58,458 nt of DNA from a virus (lineage: Duplodnaviria; Heunggongvirae; Uroviricota; Caudoviricetes): IMG/VR virus record IMGVR_UViG_2724679172_000006. The stretch is one strand, 5' to 3'. Below the pieces are notes generated by a model that did not search any database, had not been told where the DNA came from, and saw only the letters and a program-made list of their open reading frames with translations. The translations under genes and the position numbers were made by a program. How positions within the stretch are numbered: the first letter of the stretch is position 1; every line of letters begins with the position of its first letter. Positions 816-56,390 of this stretch are shown in pieces.

Positions 816-1243
816 TTGCGTAACGACTATTATTTAACCAGCAAAGTAACTTTTAATTTTTTTTCTTTTCCCATTGATTTTTGTGCACAGCTTATCTGCC
901 TTGCCGTGCGCAGAATCAACTTTTTTCTTCCTGATTTATCCACAAAGTTATGCACTTGCAAGAGGGCCATTTTCTAAATATTGTGATGTTTCACAAATGA
1001 AATGAATTTTGATTAATGAAGATAAGGAGAAAATTTGAGATGCAATCATGACGTTAATAGATAGGGTCTGCATTACAGACCCCATCCGCATCAAGGAATT
1101 AGCCGTTCCCTGATGTTGTTCCGAAAACATGTGCCGTAAGCTCACGTTAACGACTTTCTTTCACCGAATCCAACTATATAGGGGTTGGGTTTCTACGTCA
1201 ACGTGAGCAAGTGCTCCTTTACATTTGACAAGGAACCACCTTA

Positions 1244-1381
1244 ATGACTGCTTTTTTTCAGTTCCTGAGTGCATTTTTAGATGCGCCTGTTATTAGCCAG
1301 ATTCTGGCGATCATCCTCATCATCGTTTTGATTTTGCTTTTAAGGTCAGTAAAAAATGGAATTATGCACTGGCTTACTTAA
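1244..1381 (+). CDS. small hydrophobic peptide, 45 aa (MTAFFQFLSAFLDAPVISQILAIILIIVLILLLRSVKNGIMHWLT)
   Basis: ATG preceded by AAGGAA at 8 nt; single predicted transmembrane helix; lies in a gap between minus-strand genes; below the track size cut-off. Confidence 0.25.
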   Translation: MTAFFQFLSAFLDAPVISQILAIILIIVLILLLRSVKNGIMHWLT

Positions 1382-1455
1382 TGTTCAGTGAAACATTAAA
1401 ATCTCCTTGATGTGGAAACAATCATTTTCTGTATGTGCTGGTGGGTACCTGTAGT

Positions 1456-1818
1456 TCAGCTTTCGTTGGCATTTAACTTCGTCTTTGCTTTCTCCACCAG
1501 CAACTTCCAGATGCCTATTTCATTAGCAGCCGCCTTGATGGCGGCATAAAAAGCATCTTGCTGATCGTAACGCTGAATCTGTTTTTTCAGTTTTGCCTCC
1601 ACCAATTTAATTTCATTACGTGCTTTCTGAAGCCGCAGCGCCGCCCGGTTACGTCTGTTCTTGTATAGCGCGTTAATCTCTGATAATTGCTTTAATTTAC
1701 CAGCCTGACTGCGGATTATCGCCTCTCTGACTTCTGCCGTGCGTCTCATCTGATCTCTTAAGAGTTCACCGTTTTCGATAATTCTTTCAAGGTGTTTGAT
1801 GTGATCTGCAACTCTCAT
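1456..1818 (-). CDS. hypothetical protein, charged coiled-coil-like
   Basis: ORF track; K/R/E-rich; 4-nt overlap with upstream gene suggests coupling. Confidence 0.5.
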   Translation of the reverse strand: MRVADHIKHLERIIENGELLRDQMRRTAEVREAIIRSQAGKLKQLSEINALYKNRRNRAALRLQKARNEIKLVEAKLKKQIQRYDQQDAFYAAIKAAANEIGIWKLLVEKAKTKLNANES

Positions 1819-2747
1819 ACTTCACCCTCGCTTGTATCGCCAGCATCCACCAGCGGCAATAAAGCCCTGGCCATCTTATGAACCAATAGTGCATCAATAA
1901 TGCCAAGCGTATGCCCCGGCTTAATGTTTAATGCCGCCTCAAGGTGACACCTTTCCAGGCCACTTTTCTCGGCTTGTTTATGATGATCTGGTGTAATAAC
2001 GTCGCCCAAAACACGGCTAATTCTTTCTCGTAATTGCTGGGTGCCAGCACACTTGATCGCTGTATCGTGGAGACGGTTAACCAGTTCGCGATAAACATGC
2101 GGCTTAATTCGGATACGTTCACCGGTGACGCCCTTTCCTGGTGCTGGCACCGAACTATCCGGAATATCCGGATAGTTGCCAGCCTCGTAAGCTACCCGCA
2201 GCCAGTGCATGAATGTTTCAGTGGACACACAACCACAGTCCACATCGATTTTCCCGCGTTGCTGTTCCAGCCATTGCCCAAAATCCAACCTGTAAGTCTT
2301 ACTTTCAAGTTCATCACCATTGAACTCGACTTTCTGCGACGCTATGAGAGCTGATTCGTATTGTTCGCGAGTGACAACTGACTGGTATTCATCGCTATCA
2401 AGGTCACCAATTGGAAGCTCAATCTCACAACAAAAATTGCGCCCAAAGAAAGTGTCTTTTTTGTGGTCTGAGCCAAAAGCAAAAGTCGCGCATGGTGCCA
2501 TTAAATTGACACTGGGTAGGTAACAATAACTCATTCCATCAGGCCACCCGCCGCACTTAGGCAGTTCCTTCACTAACAAGTCGATAAACTTCATTTTTTT
2601 ATCATCTTTGCAAGCCGCCAAAGCCATTTGGGCAAGTGCCAATACTTCATCTGCCGTATATCCAGCACCGTGACCATACATTTCGATACGGGAAATAATC
2701 TCTGATATACGCTCTTCAGTGATTCTGGTCATTTCTTTTTGCGCCAT
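1815..2747 (-). CDS. hypothetical protein (310 aa)
   Basis: ORF track; no motif recognised; part of co-directional block. Confidence 0.55.
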   Translation of the reverse strand: MAQKEMTRITEERISEIISRIEMYGHGAGYTADEVLALAQMALAACKDDKKMKFIDLLVKELPKCGGWPDGMSYCYLPSVNLMAPCATFAFGSDHKKDTFFGRNFCCEIELPIGDLDSDEYQSVVTREQYESALIASQKVEFNGDELESKTYRLDFGQWLEQQRGKIDVDCGCVSTETFMHWLRVAYEAGNYPDIPDSSVPAPGKGVTGERIRIKPHVYRELVNRLHDTAIKCAGTQQLRERISRVLGDVITPDHHKQAEKSGLERCHLEAALNIKPGHTLGIIDALLVHKMARALLPLVDAGDTSEGEV

Positions 2748-3103
2748 TTCTTTTCACATTCCTTAGTCCATTTTTCAATGTTCATTTTGGCAATATCAGT
2801 CATTCCATCACCTAAGAAATACTTTCTCCGGTACGTCTTGCACTTAAACCACACTACAACAGCCACCAGCCAGAAAATAAAAGGCCATACAGCAATACCA
2901 ACTCCAGCCGCGATAAAGCCCAATAGCCATAAATGAAGCTCTCCAACTTCTGTTTGCGGCAATATTCTTAAAGAATTAAGCAGCAGACTGAAGGAATAGT
3001 CGTATGCATTGGCGGTATAAGACATGCAATCCATATAATTAAAGTCATAGCCTGCGGCTGCCGCCCATAATGGGCGGTCAAGAAAATGTTTTAGTGTCAT
3101 CAT
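2729..3103 (-). CDS. hypothetical membrane protein
   Basis: Two hydrophobic helices (LHLWLLGFIAAGVGIAVWPFIFWLVAVVVWF) followed by lysine-rich tail. Confidence 0.5.
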   Translation of the reverse strand: MMTLKHFLDRPLWAAAAGYDFNYMDCMSYTANAYDYSFSLLLNSLRILPQTEVGELHLWLLGFIAAGVGIAVWPFIFWLVAVVVWFKCKTYRRKYFLGDGMTDIAKMNIEKWTKECEKKWRKKK

Positions 3104-3109
3104 ATAAAT

Positions 3110-3499
3110 TTAAGGTTCAGACCAGTTATCTTCAATAGCAATGCTTAATCTTTGTAGCCATTCTGCTAATTTCAGCATTGCTTCTCTTTCGCTTAAACCA
3201 CGAGGAAAATCATCAAGCGAAATTGTTGGCTTGAAGCCCCCGTAATTATCTATTTCAACAGTCAGATTTTGCTCCAGCACGGTATTCCTTACGCGGCTAT
3301 TGTGCCGAAGCAAATATACTGAACGTGATTTATTGGTTTTATGGTCAAACTGATATTCGGTAAGTATCATCTGGCTTTTGCCATGACTATTACCTCTCCA
3401 CATACTTACCTCACTTAATAAAACAACTCCATGCGTAGTTGATGATTTTTTCCCACGTAATATAAATCTGCACTCCGGCAGTAAAACCAAAGCCAACAA
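3110..3499 (-). CDS. hypothetical protein
   Basis: ORF track only. Confidence 0.4.
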   Translation of the reverse strand: MLALVLLPECRFILRGKKSSTTHGVVLLSEVSMWRGNSHGKSQMILTEYQFDHKTNKSRSVYLLRHNSRVRNTVLEQNLTVEIDNYGGFKPTISLDDFPRGLSEREAMLKLAEWLQRLSIAIEDNWSEP

Positions 3500-3581
3500 T
3501 TGCTGAAAAAATCAAAACATTTACTTTTGACATTATAAATTTTCTCTCGGTGTCGTAGGTGATAGCACCATAATTGATAAT

Positions 3582-3833
3582 TTAGTGAGTTAGCAGTTCC
3601 ATTTTTTGGATGATTTCCGCATGAGCATCATCGTTATCAACACTTAACTCGTTTAATGCCTCTCGCACTACATCAACTTCTTCTGGTTGGAAGAAGTCAT
3701 CTCGGTAGTCACCAAATAGAACCGAAACAAGCCTGCCACCAGCAACATCAAGATTGGCGCTAACAGGTGGCTCTTTACCATCCTCAAATTCGACTACAAA
3801 AGTTATTTTTCCCATCGTTACCACCAGCGACAA
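3582..3833 (-). CDS. hypothetical protein (83 aa, acidic)
   Basis: ORF track only. Confidence 0.45.
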   Translation of the reverse strand: MSLVVTMGKITFVVEFEDGKEPPVSANLDVAGGRLVSVLFGDYRDDFFQPEEVDVVREALNELSVDNDDAHAEIIQKMELLTH

Positions 3834-3897
3834 ATTGAATACAAACCCAGTGCTGCCGCCATCACAATTCCTACCGTGGTGAATGCTTCAGGCCAGC

Positions 3898-4803
3898 TCA
3901 TTGATTCACCTCCTGCGGCGGTTCTGGTAGCGGCATCCAGTGTGACGGTTTCCACGACGCACCAGGAATTATCCACCCATCATTAGCGTCAGGATGCCCC
4001 GGGATGTAAGTAGCCCATTTCATTCGCCAGTCACCTTTCCTGTCAAACTCCACGGCAACAAGAACGGCTGTTTTGGTATTCGGCATTCGCTCACTACAGC
4101 TTATCCAACCATCCGGAGTTACCGGAACTTGCGGAATGGCTGTCTGCTCTCGAACGTCATTAGGCGCTATAGGTTCTGCTGCCAACTGACTGGCATATTT
4201 GTTAATGGTAACGATAAGCTCTTGCTCAGCCTCATCCAGACAATCACCGATACCTCGCCTGTCACCGTCAAAATCATCGAAATCGGCACGAATCTTGGCA
4301 ACCTTCAGGATTGCGGACAACACCTCACTAGGAATTACCGGATAGTTGGTTGACGTTTCCGCGATTTCCCGAAAATTATTGGTTGACGAATTCTTGTTTT
4401 CCCGAAAGTTTCCGGACTGAAGCATGGCGGCGCGGCAGGCGTTCCAGCCAGCTGTTCGCCCAAGCGCGTAAACTTCAGATGGCTCAAGATAATCAATGTC
4501 ATGCCCGTCCTCATCGTCGTTCTCAGGTAATGCAGCAGGTACTACCGGTACTGGCGGAGCGGTGTAGACCTCAATAATCCCATTATCAATAGGCCATTCT
4601 CCATCCTTGAGATAGTCACTTGTGCCGTCAACTTGCTGTTCAGCAATGTGGAATGCACCAACTGGCTCTGCCTCAAGCGAGGCCAGTGCAATTCGTGCCA
4701 GTTCTTCCGCTTCTTCTGCTGGCAGTACAACGTTGCTACCAGGTCCGTATGTTTCGCGCCACTGCCTGATTGTCAGCAGTCGCTCTTTGGTAATAGTGGT
4801 CAT
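3898..4803 (-). CDS. hypothetical protein with DUF551-like C-terminal domain
   Basis: C-terminal W/P-rich segment (WISCSERMPN..WMPLPEPP) typical of phage DUF551 proteins. Confidence 0.5.
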   Translation of the reverse strand: MTTITKERLLTIRQWRETYGPGSNVVLPAEEAEELARIALASLEAEPVGAFHIAEQQVDGTSDYLKDGEWPIDNGIIEVYTAPPVPVVPAALPENDDEDGHDIDYLEPSEVYALGRTAGWNACRAAMLQSGNFRENKNSSTNNFREIAETSTNYPVIPSEVLSAILKVAKIRADFDDFDGDRRGIGDCLDEAEQELIVTINKYASQLAAEPIAPNDVREQTAIPQVPVTPDGWISCSERMPNTKTAVLVAVEFDRKGDWRMKWATYIPGHPDANDGWIIPGASWKPSHWMPLPEPPQEVNQ

Positions 4804-4813
4804 GTGTTAGTCC

Positions 4814-5119
4814 TTATCCTGCTGTACTTTCAACTGATGAGGGGAATAAAATCTTTTCATCAAATCCGGCATTCATATCATGAACAGCAACACACCAATC
4901 CATTGACGAACGATTATCAAGAGCCTCCATGATTTCATCCATGCGGCGCAGGTCATACAGGTAAATGCTTTTATCGCCAATGGTGTAAAAACCAATTTTT
5001 TTCGGTGATGGGCAGCGATCAAGAACGTCCTGTAATTCGCTCAACCATGCTTGTTCTTTTTTTGTCAAAGTTGCCATATCACTCTCCTTTGATGCCAATG
5101 CCAGCGGCGCGGGAATCAT
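4814..5119 (-). CDS. hypothetical protein
   Basis: ORF track only. Confidence 0.45.
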   Translation of the reverse strand: MIPAPLALASKESDMATLTKKEQAWLSELQDVLDRCPSPKKIGFYTIGDKSIYLYDLRRMDEIMEALDNRSSMDWCVAVHDMNAGFDEKILFPSSVESTAG

Positions 5120-5636
5120 CCCATCGCTTTACTTCTTCACGAATTACGTCAATGCATTCTTTCGAATCCATTAGGTAATCTTCATCAAAAAGACGTTCCT
5201 GTTCGTTTTCTATCGCAACAATGATTGCTTCAACTAACTTTTGTGCCTGAGAACCACTTTCTAACTCTGCTATGCGCTTACTCCCATCAGAGATAACACC
5301 TTCGTAATACTCACGCTGCTCGTTGAGTTTTGATTTTGCTGCTTCCAGCTCAACGCGCAACTTCCCTACCGTTAGTGCAATATCCTCGTTCTCCTGGTCG
5401 CGGGATTTGATGTATTGCTGGTTCCTTTCCCGTTCATCCAGTAGTGCCAAAGCAATCTTTGGATTAAAGGCAGCAATAAATTCAGCGTTGTTTTTCAGAA
5501 CGTGTTGCGCAATGGCCTGACTACTTAGTCGGACCTCATAACCACGTGCGCCACGGTGTGGTTTATATGAGTCCCAGTCTCCCCACGTTGCCTTCTCTGC
5601 CGCCTCACGCAGTGCCTGATAGTCAATCTTGTTCAT
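5079..5636 (-). CDS. Ead/Ea22-like phage protein
   Basis: N-terminus MNKIDYQALREAAEKATWGDW.. and coiled-coil middle resemble lambdoid Ea22-family proteins; paralogue of 5934-6659. Confidence 0.45.
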   Translation of the reverse strand: MNKIDYQALREAAEKATWGDWDSYKPHRGARGYEVRLSSQAIAQHVLKNNAEFIAAFNPKIALALLDERERNQQYIKSRDQENEDIALTVGKLRVELEAAKSKLNEQREYYEGVISDGSKRIAELESGSQAQKLVEAIIVAIENEQERLFDEDYLMDSKECIDVIREEVKRWDDSRAAGIGIKGE

Positions 5637-5637
5637 G

Positions 5638-5970
5638 TCACATCACCCTGAATCCGTTGCATTTACGTAAGAAATCGCAGATATAGCCCTTCATTTTTTC
5701 ATGCCAATCTCGATCATTCCCATTGCACCAACCATCAGGTGGAGTCCAGTTTTCTATCAGAGCAGCCATTTTCTTTGCTTTCGCCGGAGTAGCTGTTGCG
5801 GTATCGCAGTAATGACGAGTGTCAACCAACGCATCCATACCATCGATATCAAGTACGCAAAACCATGTGTGATTCGGAATTCCTACAGGTGGTATTTGTT
5901 GCCCACGTCGACGTTTATCAATAAGATATACACTCACTGCTTGCCTCCTTTGCGAATCTGTTCCGCCCAT
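5638..5970 (-). CDS. hypothetical protein
   Basis: ORF track only. Confidence 0.45.
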   Translation of the reverse strand: MGGTDSQRRQAVSVYLIDKRRRGQQIPPVGIPNHTWFCVLDIDGMDALVDTRHYCDTATATPAKAKKMAALIENWTPPDGWCNGNDRDWHEKMKGYICDFLRKCNGFRVM

Positions 5971-6659
5971 TCTTCAAGGGATTTCTCCGCATATTCACCG
6001 GACAGGCCATCAATCGGATGCGGTTCATTAGCCAACTCTTCTTTCGCTGACAAAATCATGCGTGTAACGTCGAAAACTTCACGCAAAGATTTATTGATAA
6101 ATCCGTGATTGAACGCAGCAGCAAGACGGCTGGCGGTATAGTTAATCCCCTCGTTGCGTGCTTCCGCACGAATTTCAGCCAGAAAAGCATCGGTGGCTGA
6201 AATATTTCCTGTTGCCTTCATGGCCCCCAAAATAACCAGAACGCCATCTCGCCCAACCTCCTCAGCGATAACCTCGGTGTTGTCGCCAACAACATCGCAG
6301 AATGCCTGAACTGCCTTACGAGCCAGCTCATTCTCCGCCGCCAGCGCCGCGCACTTGGCCTCAAGAGCGGCAACCACTTCCTGATGGTCTTTGTACTTAA
6401 CGTATGAGCCGGAGATGTCATCACCTTCGGTGTTTAGCCATGCGTCATTGCAATTCACTGCGTAGGTTCTGATGCTCATGTTGATGCTCTCCCGCCCCTG
6501 ACAGACGCTAGGCCAGTCAATAAAGTATCCGCAATGCCTACCCTCAGACGTGCGCGCAGGATAAATGCCGTTATGACCCGGCAAAATATATGCTACCCAT
6601 TCATCTTGCGTTGCCTGTTTCGCCGCCTCGCGCAGTTCTTTATAGTTAATTTCGCTCAC
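5934..6659 (-). CDS. Ead/Ea22-like phage protein
   Basis: N-terminus MSEINYKELREAAKQATQDEW..; C-terminal AEQIRKGGKQ shared with next gene. Confidence 0.45.
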   Translation of the reverse strand: MSEINYKELREAAKQATQDEWVAYILPGHNGIYPARTSEGRHCGYFIDWPSVCQGRESINMSIRTYAVNCNDAWLNTEGDDISGSYVKYKDHQEVVAALEAKCAALAAENELARKAVQAFCDVVGDNTEVIAEEVGRDGVLVILGAMKATGNISATDAFLAEIRAEARNEGINYTASRLAAAFNHGFINKSLREVFDVTRMILSAKEELANEPHPIDGLSGEYAEKSLEEWAEQIRKGGKQ

Positions 6660-6895
6660 TGGTTGCCTCCTTTACGGATCTGCGCTGCGATGCGCGAAAA
6701 AAAAGACTCCCGCGTATGACTGTTAAGAGCTGGCGCGAACGCTGCGTTAAGAACAGCAGCATCACAGCCGTCATCAATATAGAGCGCAATTTTTTTCTCC
6801 AGGCGCGCTTTGGCTTCCTGCAACTGCATACCCCGGCACGCACGCGGGATATAATCAGCAATTTGAGCGATAGCCTTTTCGTTCTGTTTAAACAT
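6656..6895 (-). CDS. hypothetical protein
   Basis: ORF track; C-terminus AAQIRKGGNQ repeats the end of the upstream gene. Confidence 0.4.
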   Translation of the reverse strand: MFKQNEKAIAQIADYIPRACRGMQLQEAKARLEKKIALYIDDGCDAAVLNAAFAPALNSHTRESFFSRIAAQIRKGGNQ

Positions 6896-7091
6896 GCTTC
6901 ACCTCGATAGGCTTGATGGTGTCTAACAGCAGTCGGCGGCGCGTATTTTCTGCAAAATGGCGGCGTCCAGTTTCTTTGTGGTAAAACTCGTTTTTGCCGA
7001 CGACCCACATCCGCTCTGTTTGGTGCAGTTTTTTTACCTGCGGACCGTCTTTGGTGATCACGGTGCCGGTATGGGTTTTTACGATTGTCAT
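6888..7091 (-). CDS. hypothetical protein
   Basis: ORF track only. Confidence 0.35.
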   Translation of the reverse strand: MTIVKTHTGTVITKDGPQVKKLHQTERMWVVGKNEFYHKETGRRHFAENTRRRLLLDTIKPIEVKHV

Positions 7092-7174
7092 GCCACTACC
7101 TATTCGAACAGATGAACGAGACAGGCCGATGCTCGTCCACCTGAAAAACTGACGATTTGATGCATACTCACGGT

Positions 7175-7903
7175 TTATTCCTGAATGCGCTTAAACTCGA
7201 TTACCCACACCCAGGGATTAGCGTTCCAGCTTTCTTCACCATAGATGGATTCCCACAGACGCTGGAACGCAACCTTGGCCATTGCGAAATCCCCCTTGGG
7301 AGTAAGGAATGTTCCCGGGTGATCAGGAAGCAAACTTCCAGCAGGCGGAACGCCCTCATCCCTTGCATCGCATTCGCTGATATCGTTCAACCGCTCAACG
7401 CGCACGTTGGTAATTTCCAACAGGATGCGTGATGCCCATCGCGGCATGTGAATTGATGGACGCCACCCACCATCAAACTTTTCATTCACAGTGTGAGGTT
7501 TCCAGTCGGCATCATCGGGTATCGACCATAAACCGTAATCACCAGGCTTTTGCTCACAACTGGCCCGATAAATCCTTGCTGCGTTCTTCTCATCGCCACG
7601 ACAAAGGTTGTCGTTCCAGTCCACACTGCAACCATCTTCATTGCCTAATATCGCCCATGTTTCACGAACCCAAATTCGATCGCCGACGATACCAAAGGGG
7701 CAATTGAAAACACTGCTTACACCATCAGCCCCGTACCACTGAAAACCTGCACCAATTTCCCTAACCATCACTGGTGCTTCTGGACCAACTTCCGCAGGCT
7801 GATTTTTCATTATCCGCCGCGTCTGCGTTTTCCTTCCTTCGAGGATGGCTCGGACCATCTCATCGTTGAAAATCATGCCGCGCTCTTTCACTTCGCCTTT
7901 CAT
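7175..7903 (-). CDS. hypothetical protein (242 aa)
   Basis: ORF track; GGGGGA ribosome-binding site upstream; N-terminal MIFNDEMVRAILEGRKTQTRR. Confidence 0.5.
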   Translation of the reverse strand: MKGEVKERGMIFNDEMVRAILEGRKTQTRRIMKNQPAEVGPEAPVMVREIGAGFQWYGADGVSSVFNCPFGIVGDRIWVRETWAILGNEDGCSVDWNDNLCRGDEKNAARIYRASCEQKPGDYGLWSIPDDADWKPHTVNEKFDGGWRPSIHMPRWASRILLEITNVRVERLNDISECDARDEGVPPAGSLLPDHPGTFLTPKGDFAMAKVAFQRLWESIYGEESWNANPWVWVIEFKRIQE

Positions 7904-7912
7904 GCATCCCCC

Positions 7913-7999
7913 TTACCCATGCGCGACGATGCCGCCAAAAGTGATAGAGAACAGCCAGAAATAGATCGCGGCCATAATGATTTTGAATGCCGTGTTCAT
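7913..7999 (-). CDS. small hydrophobic peptide, 28 aa (MNTAFKIIMAAIYFWLFSITFGGIVAHG)
   Basis: AGGAG 8 nt upstream of ATG; its stop lies 9 nt before the start of the 242-aa gene; below track cut-off. Confidence 0.25.
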   Translation of the reverse strand: MNTAFKIIMAAIYFWLFSITFGGIVAHG

Positions 8000-8081
8000 A
8001 TTTTCAGCTCCTGTGATTGATTGGATACATGCCGCGCCTTGCGGCATGTTTTTATTTTCACTTTCTCTGTTTTAAAAATCA

Positions 8082-8098
8082 ATATTTATTAGAGCAAT
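8082..8098 (-). promoter_or_regulatory. C1-repressor-type operator (15 of 17 match)
   Basis: ATATTTATTAGAGCAAT, reverse complement of ATTGCTCTAATAAATTT. Confidence 0.55.
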
Positions 8099-8604
8099 TA
8101 TTGTTGGTGGAGAAGCGCGTTTTCATACTCCCTGACCATTAACGTAAGTACGCCGTGACTCCTGAAAACACGCGCCACTTCAATCTTATCTTCCAGCGCG
8201 AACGCAATTTTACTTAGACCAATTTTCTTCAGGAGATCAATCTTTGCTGGACCGTCATTTCTGTCATCGGTGGCAGGACGCATAGATAGCAAAGGCTCAG
8301 CCCCGTTTGTTACGTACTTCCGCAGCCAGGCTCGTGTTTTATCCCTTGCGATCTCACAGCGCCCGGTTACAAACCAGACCGTGTAAACGTTAAATAACTG
8401 GCGCACCATATCAATAACCGGAGTGATGGGAGTATCGGTGTCACAGGCGAGATTAAACTCGTTCCAGTCCTTTGTTAATGCACCTTTACCTGGTGGCGGA
8501 AGCAAATGCAGTCTGTCTTCAGTTGCCTCTGATATTGTTCCATCAATATCGACTATGACGATATACGGACGTTCCTGGTGTGCGTGTTTATTGAAAATAC
8601 TCAA
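8098..8604 (-). CDS. HAD-superfamily phosphatase, polynucleotide-kinase-phosphatase-like
   Basis: DxDGT motif in IVIVDIDGTIS near N-terminus, size and layout of HAD phosphatases. Confidence 0.6.
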   Translation of the reverse strand: MSIFNKHAHQERPYIVIVDIDGTISEATEDRLHLLPPPGKGALTKDWNEFNLACDTDTPITPVIDMVRQLFNVYTVWFVTGRCEIARDKTRAWLRKYVTNGAEPLLSMRPATDDRNDGPAKIDLLKKIGLSKIAFALEDKIEVARVFRSHGVLTLMVREYENALLHQQ

Positions 8605-47530: not shown

Positions 47531-48565
47531 ATGACAAAAATTACTAATTCTAATGAGTTGAAGTTGCTGTATAAACAGTCAGTGCTCATTCCATCATACA
47601 AAGATCACGTAGCGATCTTGCAAAAACAATTAGGAATAGAAAAACATTCTTTTCAAAATATGCCAAGATTGAATAGACAAGCTGTAATTAGTAACTCTCT
47701 TCGAAAACAATTGGCTAGTATACCGAACTTGGCTGGAATAGGCAGCAAGTATCGTGAACATATCGCGATTTTACAGAAACAGACTCAGGCTCTTTTCCCT
47801 CATGATGCAAATAGATATATTCAAATGCTAAGGAAACAGGCCGAAATAGCTATGCCATTACGAAAACAGCTTGAGGTGCTTAATAAGCAAGCTGGTTTAA
47901 ATAACATGCAAGCGATACTTAAAGAATTACAACAAAGTGCAAGTTATAAAATAGATGTAAGCCAAGACATAAAGAAAGTACTAGATCACTATGCTAGAAC
48001 AAGAAATGCTTCATTACATCAAATAATAGAGCAGGGGATTTCATCTATTGCGCAGGCTTATGCTGAAGGTGCTACTGAAACATCACACACCAAAAGTAAT
48101 GTTCAAAATAAAGGATTAAATAAACCTAGCTCAAAGTTTGTTGATTCATTTAAAGAGCTTCCTTATCCACTGCAATGGTTACTAATGGTTATATTTTCTC
48201 AAGTTGTGTTTGGTGCTTTTATTGATTACGGAAAAGAGAAAACCTTGCTGGGAATACACAAGGCAGAATCATATTTTATATCTCTGTTTGAGGATAAACC
48301 AATATCAAAACAACAATTAATTAAAGAAAACAAAGAAATTAGTTGGGAAGATCTCAATGGTTTTCGTTTTATAACTGGTGAGAACGTAAGATTACACGTC
48401 AGTCCTTCTATAAATAGTGAGGTGATTGAATGCATTGGCAAAAATACTATAGTGGCTGTTTTAGATAAAAAAGATCGCCAATGGCTTTTCGTGCAGGTTA
48501 AATCAGGGGACGAGTTTATTACTGGATGGATTACACGAACATACACAAAGCCTCTTAAGGCTTGA
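47531..48565 (+). CDS. membrane-anchored protein with internal repeats and C-terminal SH3b-like domain
   Basis: Repeats H(V/I)AILQKQ and LRKQ(L/A); transmembrane segment LPYPLQWLLMVIFSQVVFGAFIDYG; C-terminal ..VAVLDKKDRQWLFVQVKSGDEFITGWI resembles bacterial SH3 domains. Confidence 0.5.
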   Translation: MTKITNSNELKLLYKQSVLIPSYKDHVAILQKQLGIEKHSFQNMPRLNRQAVISNSLRKQLASIPNLAGIGSKYREHIAILQKQTQALFPHDANRYIQMLRKQAEIAMPLRKQLEVLNKQAGLNNMQAILKELQQSASYKIDVSQDIKKVLDHYARTRNASLHQIIEQGISSIAQAYAEGATETSHTKSNVQNKGLNKPSSKFVDSFKELPYPLQWLLMVIFSQVVFGAFIDYGKEKTLLGIHKAESYFISLFEDKPISKQQLIKENKEISWEDLNGFRFITGENVRLHVSPSINSEVIECIGKNTIVAVLDKKDRQWLFVQVKSGDEFITGWITRTYTKPLKA

Positions 48566-48694: not shown

Positions 48695-49285
<591 letters not shown>

Positions 49286-49295
49286 GGGGGCTGAT

Positions 49296-49907
49296 ATGGG
49301 GCTTAATGTTGCTTCAGTAAAGTCTTATGTATCTTCGGCATTAACGACGACATTATTTGGCTCCGGCGTTGGTGAGCGGGAAGTTGGCAAGCTGACGTCA
49401 ATCATCATGAACAAAATGCTGTTCGCGCAAGGATGGCAGTTCTCTGTCGAAGTTGATGGTCTGGAGGGGGCAGACTTCTTTGCTAAAGACATTACCTACC
49501 ACGATTACAGCATCGAATATGAAACGATTAAAATCGGCGGAGGGAATATCCTTCAGCCAACGGAGCGTTCACCTGGGCAGATAACAATGATGGTCAGGGA
49601 TACCGTTGATGGCCTCGTTTTGGACTGGTTTAAGACGGCAAAAAGTCGGGTGATCAATCCGGACGGTACCGGGAATATACCGTCTAAATATTTGCTCAAT
49701 GTGCGTATTTATCGGTTGCTGTCCTCCGGTTTAACCAAACTGGAAAATGAGATGACGGTATTCCCGGTCACTACCGGCGATGTCACCTATGCGCGGGATC
49801 AGGTTACGGAATTTAAGTCATTCCCAATGACCTTCGCGTTGCACAGCACGTTTAACCAATCCTCAAGTTCTTTAGCTTCCCTTCTGGGCTTTAGTTTTTC
49901 GCTTTAA
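49296..49907 (+). CDS. putative tail tube protein
   Basis: 203 aa (about 22 kDa), position two genes upstream of tape-measure-like gene; assignment by size and synteny only. Confidence 0.35.
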   Translation: MGLNVASVKSYVSSALTTTLFGSGVGEREVGKLTSIIMNKMLFAQGWQFSVEVDGLEGADFFAKDITYHDYSIEYETIKIGGGNILQPTERSPGQITMMVRDTVDGLVLDWFKTAKSRVINPDGTGNIPSKYLLNVRIYRLLSSGLTKLENEMTVFPVTTGDVTYARDQVTEFKSFPMTFALHSTFNQSSSSLASLLGFSFSL

Positions 49908-49921
49908 ATTAAGGAGCAAGG

Positions 49922-50803
49922 ATGCTTTTACCCCTTTTCCCGCTACCATCGCGGCCAACTGAATTAATCCAGTTCCGTCAGCCAAATATTGCTGATGCGA
50001 TGCGTTTCAACTCGATAACACCGGAGGAACAAGAACAGCAGACAACAGCGTATTTAAAAGCCTTGCTGGCTGAAGCTGCGAAACATGATCCACTGAAATG
50101 GACGGCACAGGACCGGATTACCGCGTTATGGTGGATATTTACTGGCTCCCGCGAAACACCGATCGAGACATTTACCTACACCTGTAAACATTGCGGTAAA
50201 GAGCATTATTACGATTGCGATATGAATGCTCTGGCTGAAGATATCCAGGTCCTGGAAGTGGAACCGTTCATTGACGATATTGAGGTGTCTGTAGAGGGCG
50301 TGCCTTATCAATGGCGTATCGTGCCGCTTGATGGTTGGGCAATGGAAATGCTGGAGATGCGCCGAGCAGCATTGCCACCTGAAGACGACGCGGAATTCAA
50401 AGAAGCGATCGTTGATTTGCGTTTTTGGGAATTCGCTTATCAGTGTGAACTTTATAACGATGTTAGCGGTACTCGTGAAGAGCAGGCTGAGCGTCGTTAT
50501 GAAACGATCAAACGGATGGCCATTGATACTGAATTTATGAAGCTGGCGGCACACATCCGGCTGGCTCATGAAAAGCTCGAACATGGTTTACCGTGCTACA
50601 TCGATAAAGGCGAAATGCGTCTTCGTCTCCCGCCGCACAAATGCCCAAACCAGGATACAAAGGAGTCCACAGAGGGTGCGTATACCCGTCTGTGGGTGCC
50701 CTTTCGGGCTACCGACTTCATTCCACAGGTGGGGATTGAAAAGCTATCAGACCTTAGTGTCCAACCTGGTTTTGTATGGGGGTATACCGATTCAGGACGC
50801 TGA
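49922..50803 (+). CDS. hypothetical tail-assembly protein
   Basis: ORF track; between tube-like and tape-measure-like genes. Confidence 0.45.
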   Translation: MLLPLFPLPSRPTELIQFRQPNIADAMRFNSITPEEQEQQTTAYLKALLAEAAKHDPLKWTAQDRITALWWIFTGSRETPIETFTYTCKHCGKEHYYDCDMNALAEDIQVLEVEPFIDDIEVSVEGVPYQWRIVPLDGWAMEMLEMRRAALPPEDDAEFKEAIVDLRFWEFAYQCELYNDVSGTREEQAERRYETIKRMAIDTEFMKLAAHIRLAHEKLEHGLPCYIDKGEMRLRLPPHKCPNQDTKESTEGAYTRLWVPFRATDFIPQVGIEKLSDLSVQPGFVWGYTDSGR

Positions 50804-50884
50804 AAGGCTTACTGAATCCTATGCGTTTTTCCTGTTGGAGAAACTGGAAGAAAAACTTAAACCGAAACGGTAGGCGATAAGATC

Positions 50885-53800
50885 ATGGAAAGAAAAAACG
50901 CCAATATTGACGATGTTATAAGGACAGTTGAAACCGCCAGCGCGAAAGAGCTGGAAGAGCTTGCAGGTATTCGGGAAGCTGTTGAAGATTTGAAAGGGGA
51001 ACGAGTTGCAACTGTTGATCCTGTCTCTCGCAGTGTGTCGGCATTAAATCGCACAATCGAAAATTCACGTCCTGACTTTGTGACCAATGTGCCATCAGTG
51101 GACTCTATTGTTGACGCAATGAAACGGCTTAATTTAGGGGACGTTTCTCGTATACGGGAGGACAAAGTCACTAACCGTGAACAGCAGGCTGCACCAACAG
51201 CGCACAATCCCCCAAATAGACGAAGAGAGGCAATAACAGAGGATGTTAAAGCACAGCGGTTAGAAACGGTCAAACTCGCTCGTGATTTGAAAGGGGAACG
51301 CGTTGCAACGGTTGACCCAGTATCTCGCAGTGTGTCGGCATTAAATCGAACAATCGAAAATTCCCGGCCAGACTTTGTGGCCAATGCGCCATCAGTAGAC
51401 CCTATTGTTGACGCAATGAAACGGCTTAATTTAGGGGACGTTTCTCGTGTAGTTCAGGAGGGCATTGCTCAAGAGGAACAGCAGGCCAAATCAACTACAC
51501 CAAAGGGTAAAAAAAGACGCAGGAAGGCTATATCAGAGGATATAAAGGCACAACGGACCGAAGCAGCCGAACACGCTCGCGAAATGTTCGATCAAAAAGG
51601 CGGTGCGCAAAAAAGCCAAAACCAACGCGATGCGCGTGGTCGTTTTATTGGAAAGTCAGGGAGTAAGGCCGCAGCGGAAGATGCCCGTGCTGAACGTGCT
51701 GAAAAGGCCAGGCGCAAAGAGGATGATGAGCGTCTAAATGCTGAATCAGGTTTATTAAAAAAACTGTCAAAAGTAGCTGAAGGCATAGGTAACCCTTCAG
51801 AGACTCGTGCCGTCGATGCGTTAGGTTATGCCGTTGCTGGTCCATTGTGGGCAGCAGGGAAGGAGCTTGGCGGGATATCAAAAGAAGTTGGTGGATCGCT
51901 TAATGGTGCCAGAAAGTCTATTGCCGATGTGATTCGTGGCAATGACGATAACAGCCGTAGAAAAGGTTTTTTTAGGCGTAAATCGCAAAATAGTGCCGAT
52001 GTCGTTCAGGTTAACACCCAAAAACGGACGGTTCAGGAACTTCAGGAGCAGACCAGCGAAATTAAAGAGGGCAATGACAAGATTCTCAGCGCCCTTGATC
52101 AGATAGCCAAAAACACCGGGAAAAAGAAGGGCGGCTTGCTGTCCAAACTATTTAGCCTGTTAGGGAAGGGGGCCGGTGGCGTCGCGTCGTTGTTAATGGG
52201 GCGTGGCATGCTGAAAAAAGCTGGAGCACTCGCTTTTGGCGCTCTGGGGGCAAAGAGACTCGTAGGAATGCTACGCGGTGGGGGCAAGAAGACTCTCGCC
52301 CATGAAGGCGGAGATTTGGCTGCCCGGGCAGCAGGTAAACTTGGATTAAAGGCAGTTGGTAAAGGGGCGTTACGCGCAATTCCCCTAGTCGGCACAGTGG
52401 CTGGAGGTATTTATGATGCGGTAACCGGTTGGAATGATACAGAAGCGCAACGTCGAGCGTTTGGGCTTAAATCAGGACAAGATCCATCATTCCAGCAAAA
52501 AGCCGCTTATACGTTAGCCAATGTTCTTGATTTGGGGGGACTGGTATCTGGTATTAGCAGTGCTATTGGTGATGTTCTCAAATCACTTGGATTTGAGGAT
52601 ATCGGCAATATGTTGCAATCATTTTCGACGGAAAGTATTGCCCAGGCCATTGATAGCGGGGTTACCAACTTAGAAACATATATTTCTAACCTTGGCGACA
52701 CCATTTCTACCAAGTTCGATGATTACACAGCAAAGATTGGTGATGCTGTTTCAGCATGGTTTAGCGATACATCTAATAAGTTGCTTGAAAAGCTGGATGC
52801 CATCAAAGACTTCTTTACTGTCGATAACCTGAAACAGGTTTTCAGTGATGCAATTGATAGTGCAATTGACTTCATTAAGAACCCAGGGAAACACATTAAA
52901 GAGGCGGCTGGTAATATTTGGGATGGGGTTAAAAATTTACCCGGTAAAGCATTAGATGCAGCGGTTGATGCCGTTAAAAATACCCCTGCGGCAATGATTG
53001 TATCAAAAATACCCAATCCGATCGGCGAGGCTAATGCAAAAGAAATCACTCCAGAGTTAAAAGCTCCGGTTAATAGCCACCAGGAGACATCTGATTCTAA
53101 AACTGAATCCGATGCTAAACAGACTAATATTGCTACCCGCGTGATAAATGCGGCACTGGACACGGCGAAAGATAGCAATAAAACAGTTAAAGAAACTGCC
53201 AATCAGATTATCAATGCAAATGCCGTAGAAATGGGCAATAGCGCGGTGCGGAAAATTGATTCAGCTATTGGACAAAATAGCTCGTCATCATCGTCGCGTA
53301 ATACCACCGGCACTGGGAATGACATTCAGAAAGCTGCTGATACCTACAATAATGGCAACTTAGATGTAAAAGTCGGAAGCCTTGGCGCTGAAGGTAAGGC
53401 AAATCTCGATAAGTTAGCTCCGTATTTTGCTGAACTAGAGAATAAATATGGTCTTCCTGAAGGCACTCTTTACGCGATTGCTGCAACTGAATCAGGAGGG
53501 GATCCTAACGCAAAGTCTCCGCTTACAAGATCACCAGATGGAAAGTTAAGTGGTGGCGCACTCGGGATGTTCCAGTTCACGAGTATTGCTCGTAAAGAGA
53601 CAGGGATATCGGAACCGGATGCATTTGATCCTGTGAAATCGGCAGAAGCTGCGGCTCTTCTCATGAGCAAGTATCTGAAGCAAGCCAATGGAGACTTAAA
53701 CGAGGCCATCACTGCATATAACGCTGGGTTTGGCACTATTAATAGGTGGAAAAAAGGCACAGGTGACTTATCGAAAGAAAACCGTGAGTACGCGATCAAG

Positions 53801-54604
53801 GTCAATACTCATCGTGCTCGCTATTTAGGTGGTGAAATCTATACACCAGGGGCAGGAGCACAGGGGGGGGCGCAATATGGAGTGAGGGGACCACTGCCTG
53901 ATAACGCCGTTATCGATCAGTCTACTGGCCTGGCGTTTACCCCTGGTGATAGCCCGTTTGAGAAGGGCGGTCTGGTAGACAAAATCGGTAATGCTGTTGG
54001 CGTTAACGATCTGGTCAACAAATTCATGAATGGTCGGGGGATGCGTCGAGAAGTCGTCCAGGGAACCCTCGAAGAACGTGCACGAGGAAATGGGACCGCA
54101 ACAGCAGCTGGCAATGTGTATGTTGATACTCCGACGCCAGTTGAAGAGGCGCGTCCAGTGGCCAGCAACTCAAGTTACTTTGACCAGCTCGGCGCACAAA
54201 TGGGGATTGATGGACTGTATGACAAACTCATTAATGCCCGGGGAATGCGCTCAAATAATTCTCCTCAACCAGCATCCACGTTCCAGGTGACGACTGCCGC
54301 CAACGATTTGCAGCAACCAACCGGTCGTATGCAGATAGACGGACAGGTTATTAGTGACCTTGGCGGCTCCGGTGCCAAGCCGACAATGCAGTTGGCTGAT
54401 AATACCGTTTCACTTGATGGTGAAACGAAGCGGCTGTTTGCGCAGATGACCTCATTGCTTGCCAGGATTGAAGAGCACACCAAAGACTCGGCGAAAGGCC
54501 AGGGAACTGTCGTAAAGGTCAGCACGCCTCAGCCGGGCGTTATGCGCACGGTACCACTGTCAATTGATGATCCGTTGATGAATGACTACGCGAGAGTTGA
54601 TTGA
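50885..54604 (+). CDS. sit: tape-measure-like tail protein with lytic transglycosylase (SLT) domain
   Basis: 1239 aa; SLT motifs ATESGG, GMFQF, AYNAG around aa 860-950; glycine/alanine-rich central region; N-terminal 99-aa tandem repeat. Confidence 0.75.
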   Translation: MERKNANIDDVIRTVETASAKELEELAGIREAVEDLKGERVATVDPVSRSVSALNRTIENSRPDFVTNVPSVDSIVDAMKRLNLGDVSRIREDKVTNREQQAAPTAHNPPNRRREAITEDVKAQRLETVKLARDLKGERVATVDPVSRSVSALNRTIENSRPDFVANAPSVDPIVDAMKRLNLGDVSRVVQEGIAQEEQQAKSTTPKGKKRRRKAISEDIKAQRTEAAEHAREMFDQKGGAQKSQNQRDARGRFIGKSGSKAAAEDARAERAEKARRKEDDERLNAESGLLKKLSKVAEGIGNPSETRAVDALGYAVAGPLWAAGKELGGISKEVGGSLNGARKSIADVIRGNDDNSRRKGFFRRKSQNSADVVQVNTQKRTVQELQEQTSEIKEGNDKILSALDQIAKNTGKKKGGLLSKLFSLLGKGAGGVASLLMGRGMLKKAGALAFGALGAKRLVGMLRGGGKKTLAHEGGDLAARAAGKLGLKAVGKGALRAIPLVGTVAGGIYDAVTGWNDTEAQRRAFGLKSGQDPSFQQKAAYTLANVLDLGGLVSGISSAIGDVLKSLGFEDIGNMLQSFSTESIAQAIDSGVTNLETYISNLGDTISTKFDDYTAKIGDAVSAWFSDTSNKLLEKLDAIKDFFTVDNLKQVFSDAIDSAIDFIKNPGKHIKEAAGNIWDGVKNLPGKALDAAVDAVKNTPAAMIVSKIPNPIGEANAKEITPELKAPVNSHQETSDSKTESDAKQTNIATRVINAALDTAKDSNKTVKETANQIINANAVEMGNSAVRKIDSAIGQNSSSSSSRNTTGTGNDIQKAADTYNNGNLDVKVGSLGAEGKANLDKLAPYFAELENKYGLPEGTLYAIAATESGGDPNAKSPLTRSPDGKLSGGALGMFQFTSIARKETGISEPDAFDPVKSAEAAALLMSKYLKQANGDLNEAITAYNAGFGTINRWKKGTGDLSKENREYAIKVNTHRARYLGGEIYTPGAGAQGGAQYGVRGPLPDNAVIDQSTGLAFTPGDSPFEKGGLVDKIGNAVGVNDLVNKFMNGRGMRREVVQGTLEERARGNGTATAAGNVYVDTPTPVEEARPVASNSSYFDQLGAQMGIDGLYDKLINARGMRSNNSPQPASTFQVTTAANDLQQPTGRMQIDGQVISDLGGSGAKPTMQLADNTVSLDGETKRLFAQMTSLLARIEEHTKDSAKGQGTVVKVSTPQPGVMRTVPLSIDDPLMNDYARVD
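50990..51586 (+). repeat. tandem direct duplication (two units of about 297 bp) inside the tape-measure-like gene
   Basis: Units beginning LKGERVATVDPVSRSVSALNRTIENSRPDF are about 85-90 percent identical at protein and DNA level. Confidence 0.7.
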
Positions 54605-54960
54605 TGGCCAACAATAACGAAATTGATCCTTTGCTGACGCTGGAGTTATCCGGCGTAAAAACGTATGAGTCCCAGGAGGAGGCCTGGGGCGCTCGTTTAT
54701 ATGAGTGGCTAAACACTTATCAGGGTGAGGTATACGGAGATCCGTCATGGGGCAATGTTTTACCGCAGTTTAAACACGAACCGACCAACTTGTCGCATGT
54801 TCAAATTGCGGTTGAGGCAATGCTGTTGCAAAAACTGACGGTAGATTTACCTGACATACCGATTTCTGGCTTGTCAGTAGCCGAGGGAGATGCTTTTGAT
54901 AAGTTGAAAATATCCATTCGTATCAGGGATATAACTATCACACAGGACGTGGTGCTATGA
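54601..54960 (+). CDS. baseplate wedge protein, gpW/gp25-like
   Basis: LYEWLNTYQGEVYGDPSWGNVLPQF fits the L.T..GE...P.FG pattern of gp25/GPW proteins; 119 aa. Confidence 0.45.
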   Translation: MMANNNEIDPLLTLELSGVKTYESQEEAWGARLYEWLNTYQGEVYGDPSWGNVLPQFKHEPTNLSHVQIAVEAMLLQKLTVDLPDIPISGLSVAEGDAFDKLKISIRIRDITITQDVVL

Positions 54961-56390
54961 GTAAAACAACACCGACTAAAGACAGTATTCGTGCAGAGTT
55001 TGAAGAGCTTGTCGAGAAAGATTCATTCTGGTCGAAGTTTGTCGGCTCTCAATTTGTCTCGATGCTGACATTGTTTATTACCCAGATTGTCTACAGGTGC
55101 TTTCAGTATGCCGATGCGGCGCTGGCTGAAGGCTTTATATCGACCGCGACGCGGCGTTCCTCTATCCTGGCAGCGGCAGAAACGAATAGTTACGTTGGTA
55201 CCAAGCCAACACCGTCATCGGGGATGATTGAGATCACCGCCACAAGTGAAGATGCCCCAGCGGTAATCCCCAAAAACATGCCTTTAATATCTGACGACCA
55301 GTATCCTTACATGACTATGGATGTATGCAGGTTGGTTGACGGCACCGGTACGGTAGAAGTGGCACAGTTGGAAATCCAGGAGGTGACATATACCGTTACG
55401 GCAGCCAAAGAATTTCTGGAAGTCGTGTTATCAAAGGCTCTCACTGCTGTCTGCTATAAGCTGGAAGTATTCGTGACGACCGATGGTAAGACCACGCAGT
55501 GGTCTTCCAGCACTATGTTCCGGTTAGCCGGTAGTAAAAGCCAGGTCTACGTTGAGTTTTATAAACCATCCGAACAGTTGGGTGTTCGATTCGGCGATGG
55601 GCTAATTGGGCAAATACCGCCAGAAGGCTCGACAATTACGCTTAAGGTATGGTGCACCAACGGCGATATAACCCTGGTTGCTGGCCAAAACCTGACGCCT
55701 GTCGATTCTGCGGCTAATTTAGCTAATTTGATTTCAGTTAAGACAACGACACCTATAACCGCAGGTACCGATGCTGAAACAACGGAGATCACACGTAACC
55801 GTGCACAATATTACCTTGCCTATGATGATCAGGTCGTATGGGGCGGGGACTATACGTATTTTCTGGTTCGTAACATCCCGGGGCTGTCCTGGGTAAAGGC
55901 ATGGGGCGAAGGCCAGCAAGAGAAATTAGATGGTGCTTATAATGTTCAGAATATCAATAAGATATTTATTTCAGGATGGCATCCAAATAAAAGCCAGTCA
56001 GAGCTTGAAGAAATGATCCTGACTGCCTTTAAGAAGGTACCGAATGAACTGAACAAGAAATTCTCTTATAAAGAGGTCAGAAAACTACCATTTAAGATAA
56101 CCATCACCGGACGGATATCGGCAAGCCTGACCATTGAGAATGTGACCGATGAGCTGAAGTCGGCACTGGAAACAAAATTTGGGCGCGACTCAACTTTCTT
56201 TGATCCGAACCGCGTCGGAAAGTACATCTTGATTAAGAAAAAAGACGTTTGGGCTTTTATAGAAACGCTGGGTTATTTCCGCGACTTTTATCTGGAATTT
56301 GTCGAGTGGAATGAGTCCAACGGCTTTTACGATTTCGTTTATCTGGATACAGAAAACTCCACCTTTAATATTTCGTATGAGGAGGAGTGA
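54957..56390 (+). CDS. baseplate protein, gpJ/gp6-like by position
   Basis: 477 aa immediately after gp25-like gene with overlapping stop/start. Confidence 0.4.
   Translation: MSKTTPTKDSIRAEFEELVEKDSFWSKFVGSQFVSMLTLFITQIVYRCFQYADAALAEGFISTATRRSSILAAAETNSYVGTKPTPSSGMIEITATSEDAPAVIPKNMPLISDDQYPYMTMDVCRLVDGTGTVEVAQLEIQEVTYTVTAAKEFLEVVLSKALTAVCYKLEVFVTTDGKTTQWSSSTMFRLAGSKSQVYVEFYKPSEQLGVRFGDGLIGQIPPEGSTITLKVWCTNGDITLVAGQNLTPVDSAANLANLISVKTTTPITAGTDAETTEITRNRAQYYLAYDDQVVWGGDYTYFLVRNIPGLSWVKAWGEGQQEKLDGAYNVQNINKIFISGWHPNKSQSELEEMILTAFKKVPNELNKKFSYKEVRKLPFKITITGRISASLTIENVTDELKSALETKFGRDSTFFDPNRVGKYILIKKKDVWAFIETLGYFRDFYLEFVEWNESNGFYDFVYLDTENSTFNISYEEE

Follow-up and report, generated by a model that had tools for sequence, protein, structure and literature searches.

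An old polymorphism in the number of 99-residue N-terminal units in Sit, the putative tape measure protein of P1-like phage-plasmids, with a predicted effect on tail length

The stretch of viral DNA analyzed here (Caudoviricetes; IMG/VR record IMGVR_UViG_2724679172_000006; 58,458 nucleotides (nt), hereafter the window) carries a version of sit, the gene of the structural injection transglycosylase and putative tape measure protein (TMP) of phage P1, in which a 99-codon unit near the 5' end is present twice in tandem. We interpret this arrangement as one state of an old unit-copy polymorphism of an N-terminal 99-residue module, represented by two units in the window and accompanied by an inferred lengthening of the tail, and assign this reading as a whole a probability of roughly 0.7. 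The structural and evolutionary description of the repeat is held with near certainty. The lengthening of the tail by the extra unit, which is argued by analogy with other tape measures, is rated as rather probable.

Results

The sit gene of the window and its tandem repeat

The 1239-residue open reading frame (ORF) at 50885–54604 (+ strand) aligns to P1 sit with 95.8% nucleotide identity over 97% of the query. The sole large gap in the alignment is an extra unit of 297 nt, and the product corresponds to the 1140-residue Sit of P1 plus 99 residues. The ORF also matches the sit genes of P7, RCS47, SJ46, JL22 and others. Window ORFs of 188, 203, 293, 1239, 119, 477, 279 and 144 residues match, in order and size, the pmgC-tub-pmgB-sit-pmgA-bplA-16-R series of P1, and the right 22 kb of the window is 98–99% identical to Escherichia coli plasmids of about 97 kb. 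On the basis of the match to P1 sit, the operon structure and the plasmid identity, the window is assigned to a P1-like (Punavirus) phage-plasmid and the 1239-residue ORF is identified as the sit orthologue. An SLT lytic transglycosylase domain (Pfam PF01464, E = 5.9e-26; score 90.8 bits, cut-off 21.3) is predicted at residues 847–966 (53423–53782, + strand), in the C-terminal third of the protein, well downstream of the repeat and unaffected by it. The P1 record labels sit a "putative tail ruler".

Tandem Repeats Finder, applied to positions 49000–56000, reported a single array at 50987–51556 with a period of 297, 1.9 copies, 81% matches and a score of 770, and a repeat search placed the best-conserved portion at 50987–51154 versus 51284–51451 (92% identity). 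The register-true units are unit A (50987–51283, residues 35–133) and unit B (51284–51580, residues 134–232), both on the + strand. Each is 297 nt long and in frame with sit, the first starting 102 nt after the start of the gene. The array, its frame and the SLT domain thus confirm the in-frame tandem duplication near the N-terminus of a tape-measure/transglycosylase gene that a first-pass annotation of the window had proposed at 50990–51586, a location that is right within a few bases. The nucleotide identity of 85–90% given there is too high, since the units share only 78.5% of their nucleotides overall (72% of their amino acids) and high identity is confined to the first part of the unit. 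This part, the core (in unit A 50987–51151, + strand; 165 nt, 55 codons), is 92% identical between the two copies, whereas the last 132 nt, the tail (in unit A 51152–51283, + strand; 44 codons), are only 61% identical. A sliding comparison of the copies falls to the background level beyond the unit limits, and the longest exact in-register match between the units is 47 nt.

Copy number among related phages and plasmids

A BLAST comparison of the core and the two tails with eight phage sit genes, together with an identity matrix of the units, separates three architectures. A single unit, with a tail of type B, is found in P1, P7, JL22 and SJ46; two units, A followed by B, are found in the window, phi456 and 673R5; and three are found in 813R1. 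Unit B is the counterpart of the single P1 unit, to which its tail is 92% identical, while units of type A are absent from P1, P7, SJ46 and JL22. Tail A therefore serves as a diagnostic marker of multi-copy alleles.

In PLSDB, tail A is present in 137 plasmids, eight of which contain it at two places, and tail B in 452. A tblastn search of the same database with unit A matched 479 plasmids. The best match reaches at least 90% in 138 of them, with two or more places in every entry sampled; the other 339 match at 60–80%, at one place in all sampled entries but one. Among 5426 complete RefSeq genomes of E. coli, 198 contain tail A and 440 contain tail B. An exact-pattern scan of IMG/VR followed by BLAST classification yielded 17 intact two-copy contigs, and one more split across two loci, among about 87. 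The frequency of the two-copy allele across these censuses is 20–45%. Three-copy alleles with intact ORFs are found in the complete plasmids pEC2_5 (USA, 1340 residues) and pRIVM_C029554_1 (Netherlands, 1338 residues).

More distant relatives are few. An exhaustive HMMER search with residues 1–328 gave only 15 matches, including two full-length homologues of 1081 and 1124 residues (47–48% identity) that contain one strongly diverged unit each; the search is informative on polarity and revealed no donor of tail A. A word-indexed protein search with the N-terminal 303 residues returned 21 matches, mostly partial proteins, and no distant relatives, and the GTDB species representatives contain just two close single-copy relatives and two fragments. 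Because P1, P7, SJ46, JL22 and the distant homologues all carry one unit, the distribution indicates that one unit is the ancestral state and two units the derived state.

As a separate observation, 12 of 17 two-copy plasmids but 5 of 42 single-copy plasmids derive from human isolates (evenly spaced entries of the tblastn result; Fisher p = 2e-5, a value that ignores clonal sampling, for example of pandemic extraintestinal pathogenic E. coli lineages). This excess may be a lineage effect.

Age and selection

The synonymous and nonsynonymous divergences (dS and dN) between the copies were calculated by the Nei-Gojobori method. For the cores, dS is 0.28 and dN 0.025 (dN/dS 0.09), and these values indicate purifying selection on both conserved 55-codon segments. 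For the tails, dS is 0.87 and dN 0.47 (dN/dS 0.53). The cores of the window are 92% identical to each other and each is 93% identical to the core of P1. Because they differ from each other as much as from the P1 core, and in view of the dS values, the duplication is not recent. The first-pass annotation had called it recent, a qualification contradicted both by the lack of near-identity at synonymous sites and by the distribution of the allele, which occurs in 137 plasmids, in 198 E. coli genomes and on at least seven Sit length backgrounds rather than in a few close genomes.

A table of 13 core sites that separate A from B, compiled for 71 single-copy alleles, 19 two-copy alleles and one three-copy allele, locates the additional sequence more closely. 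In the 3' half of core A the states A81, T84, A97, T104 and T118 are specific to A, and in the 5' half of core B the states G27, C33, A36 and A39 are specific to B; none of them occurs in the 71 single-copy alleles. The flanking segments, namely the 5' half of core A on one side and tail B together with the 3' half of its core on the other, resemble ordinary P1-type sequence. Since states restricted to multi-copy alleles bound it, the 297 nt in excess over P1 correspond to an internal block that comprises the 3' part of core A (positions 81–118), tail A and the 5' part of core B (positions 27–66). According to the diagnostic sites and the alignment, this private block extends over 51067–51349 (+ strand). 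The internal block has its own history, and the sequence on either side of it can exchange in register with alleles of one copy. Among its carriers, tail A is near-invariant (at least 99% identity in 131 of the 137 plasmids), whereas the identity of tail B in PLSDB spans 80–100%; for this reason the block looks old in origin but recently spread.

Recombination within the array

The three-copy alleles of 813R1, pEC2_5 and pRIVM_C029554_1 share a common structure in which unit 1 is of type A, unit 2 is a mosaic and unit 3 is of type B. In the mosaic unit the core is B-type up to position 104 and A-type from position 114, and is followed by tail A, which is exactly the product expected if core B of one molecule recombined unequally with core A of a second. 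The junction in pEC15-3 (NZ_CP060921.1) is different, as its unit 2 consists of a fully B-type core followed by tail A, and this triplication is consequently regarded as separate in origin. The junctions thus point to at least two separate origins of three-copy alleles, through unequal crossover in the core. The sit reading frame of pEC15-3 (region 4234–8321) is broken at codon 505 and no coding sequence (CDS) is listed for it; the allele may be a true pseudogene, in a prophage-plasmid undergoing decay, or the break may stem from an error in sequencing.

Exchange is also visible among the two-copy alleles. Several contain B-type patches within core A, at positions 33–39 or 81–118, and a few contain an A-type state within core B, patterns that point to gene conversion between the copies in both directions. 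The first-pass annotation had described the repeat as a substrate for homologous deletion, and recombination within it is accordingly borne out by the three-copy alleles and by the mosaic A/B units, whose junctions lie in the shared core. Single-copy revertants would be unrecognizable in sequence, since loss of a unit through a core crossover takes out precisely the private block and leaves a unit like that of P1.

Origin of the additional block

An assembly artefact, by which one unit was falsely expanded or two alleles were misjoined, can practically be discarded. Many database proteins from this region are partial and come from short contigs, but beyond this only the general risk that attaches to repeats speaks for an artefact. 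Many laboratories have contributed to the 137 PLSDB plasmids and 198 complete E. coli genomes in which the A-B arrangement is present, the plaque-forming phage phi456 has it too, and units that share at most 47 identical bases in register are resolved by ordinary reads. The artefact is excluded by these hundreds of independent complete assemblies with the identical allele. An alternative of more weight, albeit one that we consider rather doubtful, is that the extra segment entered by out-of-register recombination with a diverged, unsampled sit allele bearing an A-type tail and then spread recently in P1-like elements of E. coli. Tail A is 61–63% identical to every B- or P1-type tail, without intermediates, while B-type tails are 89–100% identical among themselves; the dS of the tails is three times that of the cores; and the near-invariance of tail A, set against the variability of tail B, agrees with a recent spread. 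Against a donor stands the observation that no allele with a single A-type unit was found among the sampled entries of the 479 plasmids, the approximately 87 IMG/VR contigs or the GTDB species representatives. Likewise, an exact-pattern scan found no junction of tail A with the 3' flank in IMG/VR or JGI metagenome contigs. (Four metagenome matches to the pattern of this junction were rejected as chance matches, as they show no sit homology by blastn or tblastn.) Furthermore, the 5' half of core B also holds variants unseen in single-copy alleles, which an internally evolving array explains better than a single crossover with a donor. The extra 297 nt are old, or derived from a diverged lineage, and they are now common in the P1-like elements of E. 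coli.

Sit as a tape measure and the predicted tail length

Sit was detected in P1 virions by liquid chromatography with tandem mass spectrometry, and Gonzales et al. took it to be the tape measure in view of its size, its SLT domain and the helical character of the N-terminal two-thirds (PMC9024508). Cryo-electron microscopy (cryo-EM) work on P1 also lists Sit as the TMP, with density in the lumen and at the baseplate (PMC12810830). The gene is essential, as its knock-down by CRISPR interference abolishes plaque formation (PMC10695390). The P1 tail measures 2450 Å and comprises 53 rings of tube and sheath, at a rise of about 40 Å (PMC10304247). Division of the tail length by the 1140 residues of P1 Sit gives 1.86 Å per residue, at which 99 residues correspond to 184 Å (4.6 rings); at the 1.5 Å of an α-helix they correspond to 149 Å (3.7 rings).

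If Sit is oriented like other tape measures, its C-terminus with the SLT domain would lie at the baseplate end and its N-terminus would be head-proximal. A single-sequence AlphaFold2 model of residues 1–420 is mostly helical, each unit comprising two helices, a coil at a stretch rich in proline and arginine, and a third helix. The repeat would thus form a largely helical module in the part of the ruler nearest the head. With each extra unit, the module is predicted to shift the point at which the terminator caps the tube, and the tail would then be longer by about 15–18 nm, or about four rings: 53 rings with one unit, about 57 with two and about 61 with three. The cores serve as the site of the crossovers that gave rise to three-copy alleles, and they are maintained by purifying selection and partly homogenized by gene conversion. 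The longer protein is functional, since phi456, with a two-copy Sit of 1231 residues, forms plaques and myovirus particles.

Several points weigh against this reading. The value of 1.86 Å per residue exceeds the rise of an α-helix, and the simple ruler arithmetic is therefore imperfect if all of Sit spans the trunk. Sit is not resolved in the P1 cryo-EM maps, save for low-resolution density at the center of the baseplate (PMC12810830), and the AlphaFold2 model is of low confidence (mean predicted local distance difference test score of 56.8). The literature searched yielded neither a tail length for the two- or three-copy phages phi456 (whose paper gives none), 813R1 and 673R5, nor a deletion or duplication experiment on P1 Sit. 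As to the age of the duplication, the difference in dS between core and tail fits both an old duplication with gene conversion and acquisition from an unsampled lineage. Finally, distant homologues show little conservation of the unit region, and Sit ranges from 1100 to 1142 residues among single-copy alleles (classes of 1100, 1110, 1124, 1130, 1132, 1134, 1137, 1140 and 1142) and from 1225 to 1249 among two-copy alleles. Because single-copy Sit already varies by up to about 40 residues, N-terminal slack without a change in ring number may be tolerated.

These last points are the basis of an alternative to a ruler effect, namely that the module is a neutral insertion outside the length-determining stretch, in a flexible, compressible or folded head-proximal segment, so that the ring number is unchanged and the copy-number polymorphism persists by drift and hitch-hiking. 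The module is the least conserved part of Sit in the distant homologues and of low complexity, only the motif IVxAMKxLNLG being recognizable, and in the model its helices are interrupted by coil rather than forming a continuous rod. This alternative is nevertheless judged unlikely. The strong purifying selection on both cores implies that the extra copy is not decaying, and the allele reaches a frequency of 20–45%. In addition, engineered in-frame length changes in lambda gpH, T4 gp29 and the TMP of TP901-1 alter the tail length in proportion, as Katsura and Hendrix in 1984 and Abuladze et al. in 1994, both cited in PMC13585406, are said to have reported for tape measures. A lengthening of the tail by each extra unit thus remains the preferred reading. 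A more speculative extension, to which we give little weight, is that the series of one, two and three copies constitutes a natural tail-length polymorphism (about 53, 57 and 61 rings) that is kept because reach matters across hosts with envelopes or capsules of different thickness. If this were true, the apparent two-copy excess in human clinical E. coli would reflect tail reach, in a phage with the longest known contractile tail.

An antisense ORF across the repeat

An antisense ORF of 175 codons with a TTG start (50857–51384, − strand), whose product contains the repeat, overlaps unit A. The first-pass annotation had regarded it as a spurious product of the duplication, and the comparison with relatives agrees, as the open stretch in this frame grows with copy number from 52 residues in P1 to 198 here and 297 in the three-copy allele. 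That an ORF of this length with a possible start codon exists could be taken to suggest a real gene created by the duplication, but this is highly improbable. The open frame merely gains 99 residues per A unit, no antisense ORF of at least 40 residues is present at the equivalent place in P1, no sigma-70-like promoter was found in 50700–51800 on either strand, and the substitutions between the units are mostly synonymous in the sit frame. The antisense ORF is most likely a passive, probably non-coding by-product of unit A.

Neighboring genes and annotation

The gene directly upstream of sit, at 49922–50803 (+ strand), corresponds in size and position to P1 pmgB, lies outside the repeat, and encodes a protein that has been proposed as a chaperone of the tape measure (PMC9024508). 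A 101-codon ORF in the +1 frame (50568–50873, + strand) overlaps the 3' end of pmgB and stops 12 nt before the start of sit. It is also open in P1 (2684–2989 of the P1 locus) and is partly annotated in phi456 as Orf23. Its position resembles that of the frameshifted pairs of tail-assembly chaperones found upstream of tape measure genes, but it would need a +1 rather than a −1 shift. Upstream of pmgC, at 47531–48565 (+ strand), a 344-residue protein is encoded with a C-terminal SH3_3 match just under the Pfam cut-off. This slot holds simC in P1 and upf50.0/50.5 in P7, and resembles a variable cargo slot beside the late operon. Within Sit, the SLT region occurs in at least two sequence types (P0022 versus the window), which together with the many length classes indicates further indel and mosaic variation in the putative ruler.

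Two annotation problems were noted in RefSeq plasmids. In some two-copy plasmids the sit CDS begins after the repeat, at the methionine of EMFDQKGG, and encodes 1013 residues (for example NZ_CP031654.1, region 17000–23000). In NZ_CP031654.1 the full sit ORF of 1246 residues is open from a P1-type start (1076–4816 of the locus, equivalent to 50885–51586 of the window). As a result of the late start the repeat is left unannotated and the polymorphism is hidden. Additionally, bplA, at 54957–56390 (+ strand) in the window, with Pfam matches to Gp6-like and Baseplate_J, is called "bleomycin hydrolase" in many RefSeq plasmids, an apparently propagated misnomer for a baseplate wedge gene.

Discussion

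The tandem duplication of a tape measure gene is an otherwise ordinary event, here in a well-known gene. The two-copy allele is already contained in hundreds of public records, where it has gone unremarked, and no mention of sit copy number was found in the literature searched. The evidence by which Sit came to be accepted as the tape measure of P1 is indirect, and a viable allelic series with steps of 99 residues lends itself directly to a test of the ruler model in a contractile tail of great length. Tail A provides a simple marker that divides P1-like phage-plasmids into two common classes. In three-copy alleles a 297-nt sequence is repeated almost perfectly, and assemblies from short reads will probably collapse it.

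Comparison with known systems

The Sit proteins of P1, P7, SJ46, RCS47 and JL22 resemble that of the window in nucleotide identity (about 96%), in the operon position within pmgC-tub-pmgB-sit-pmgA-bplA, in the SLT domain and in the presence of a B-type unit. They differ in having one 99-residue unit (1130–1140 residues in total) instead of the two found here (1239 residues). The closest counterparts are phi456 (OR339795) and many IncY P1-like plasmids of E. coli, which have the same A-B architecture and a tail A that is 99–100% identical. Their downstream part is of slightly different length (classes of 1225–1249 residues as opposed to 1239), and several have mosaic cores in unit 1.

In a wider comparison, Sit resembles lambda gpH, T4 gp29, the TMP of TP901-1 and the mycobacteriophage TMPs with tandem units in being a long product of the tail operon that is predicted to be largely helical. 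Variation of TMP length through tandem units was reportedly described by Belcaid et al. in 2011, as cited in PMC13585406. A muralytic domain in the tape measure, comparable to the SLT domain of Sit, is present in T5 pb2 and in the TMP of TM4 (PMC9024508). Sit differs from these TMPs in that its role as a ruler is putative, and in its repeat unit, which is long (99 residues), N-terminal and present in only one to three copies. A 2026 survey finds that the TMPs of myoviruses are typically without tandem repeats (PMC13585406), which makes the P1-like case somewhat unusual. Both tandem units and duplications have precedents among tape measure genes, and the sit repeat of P1-like phage-plasmids is a somewhat unusual case of this known kind.

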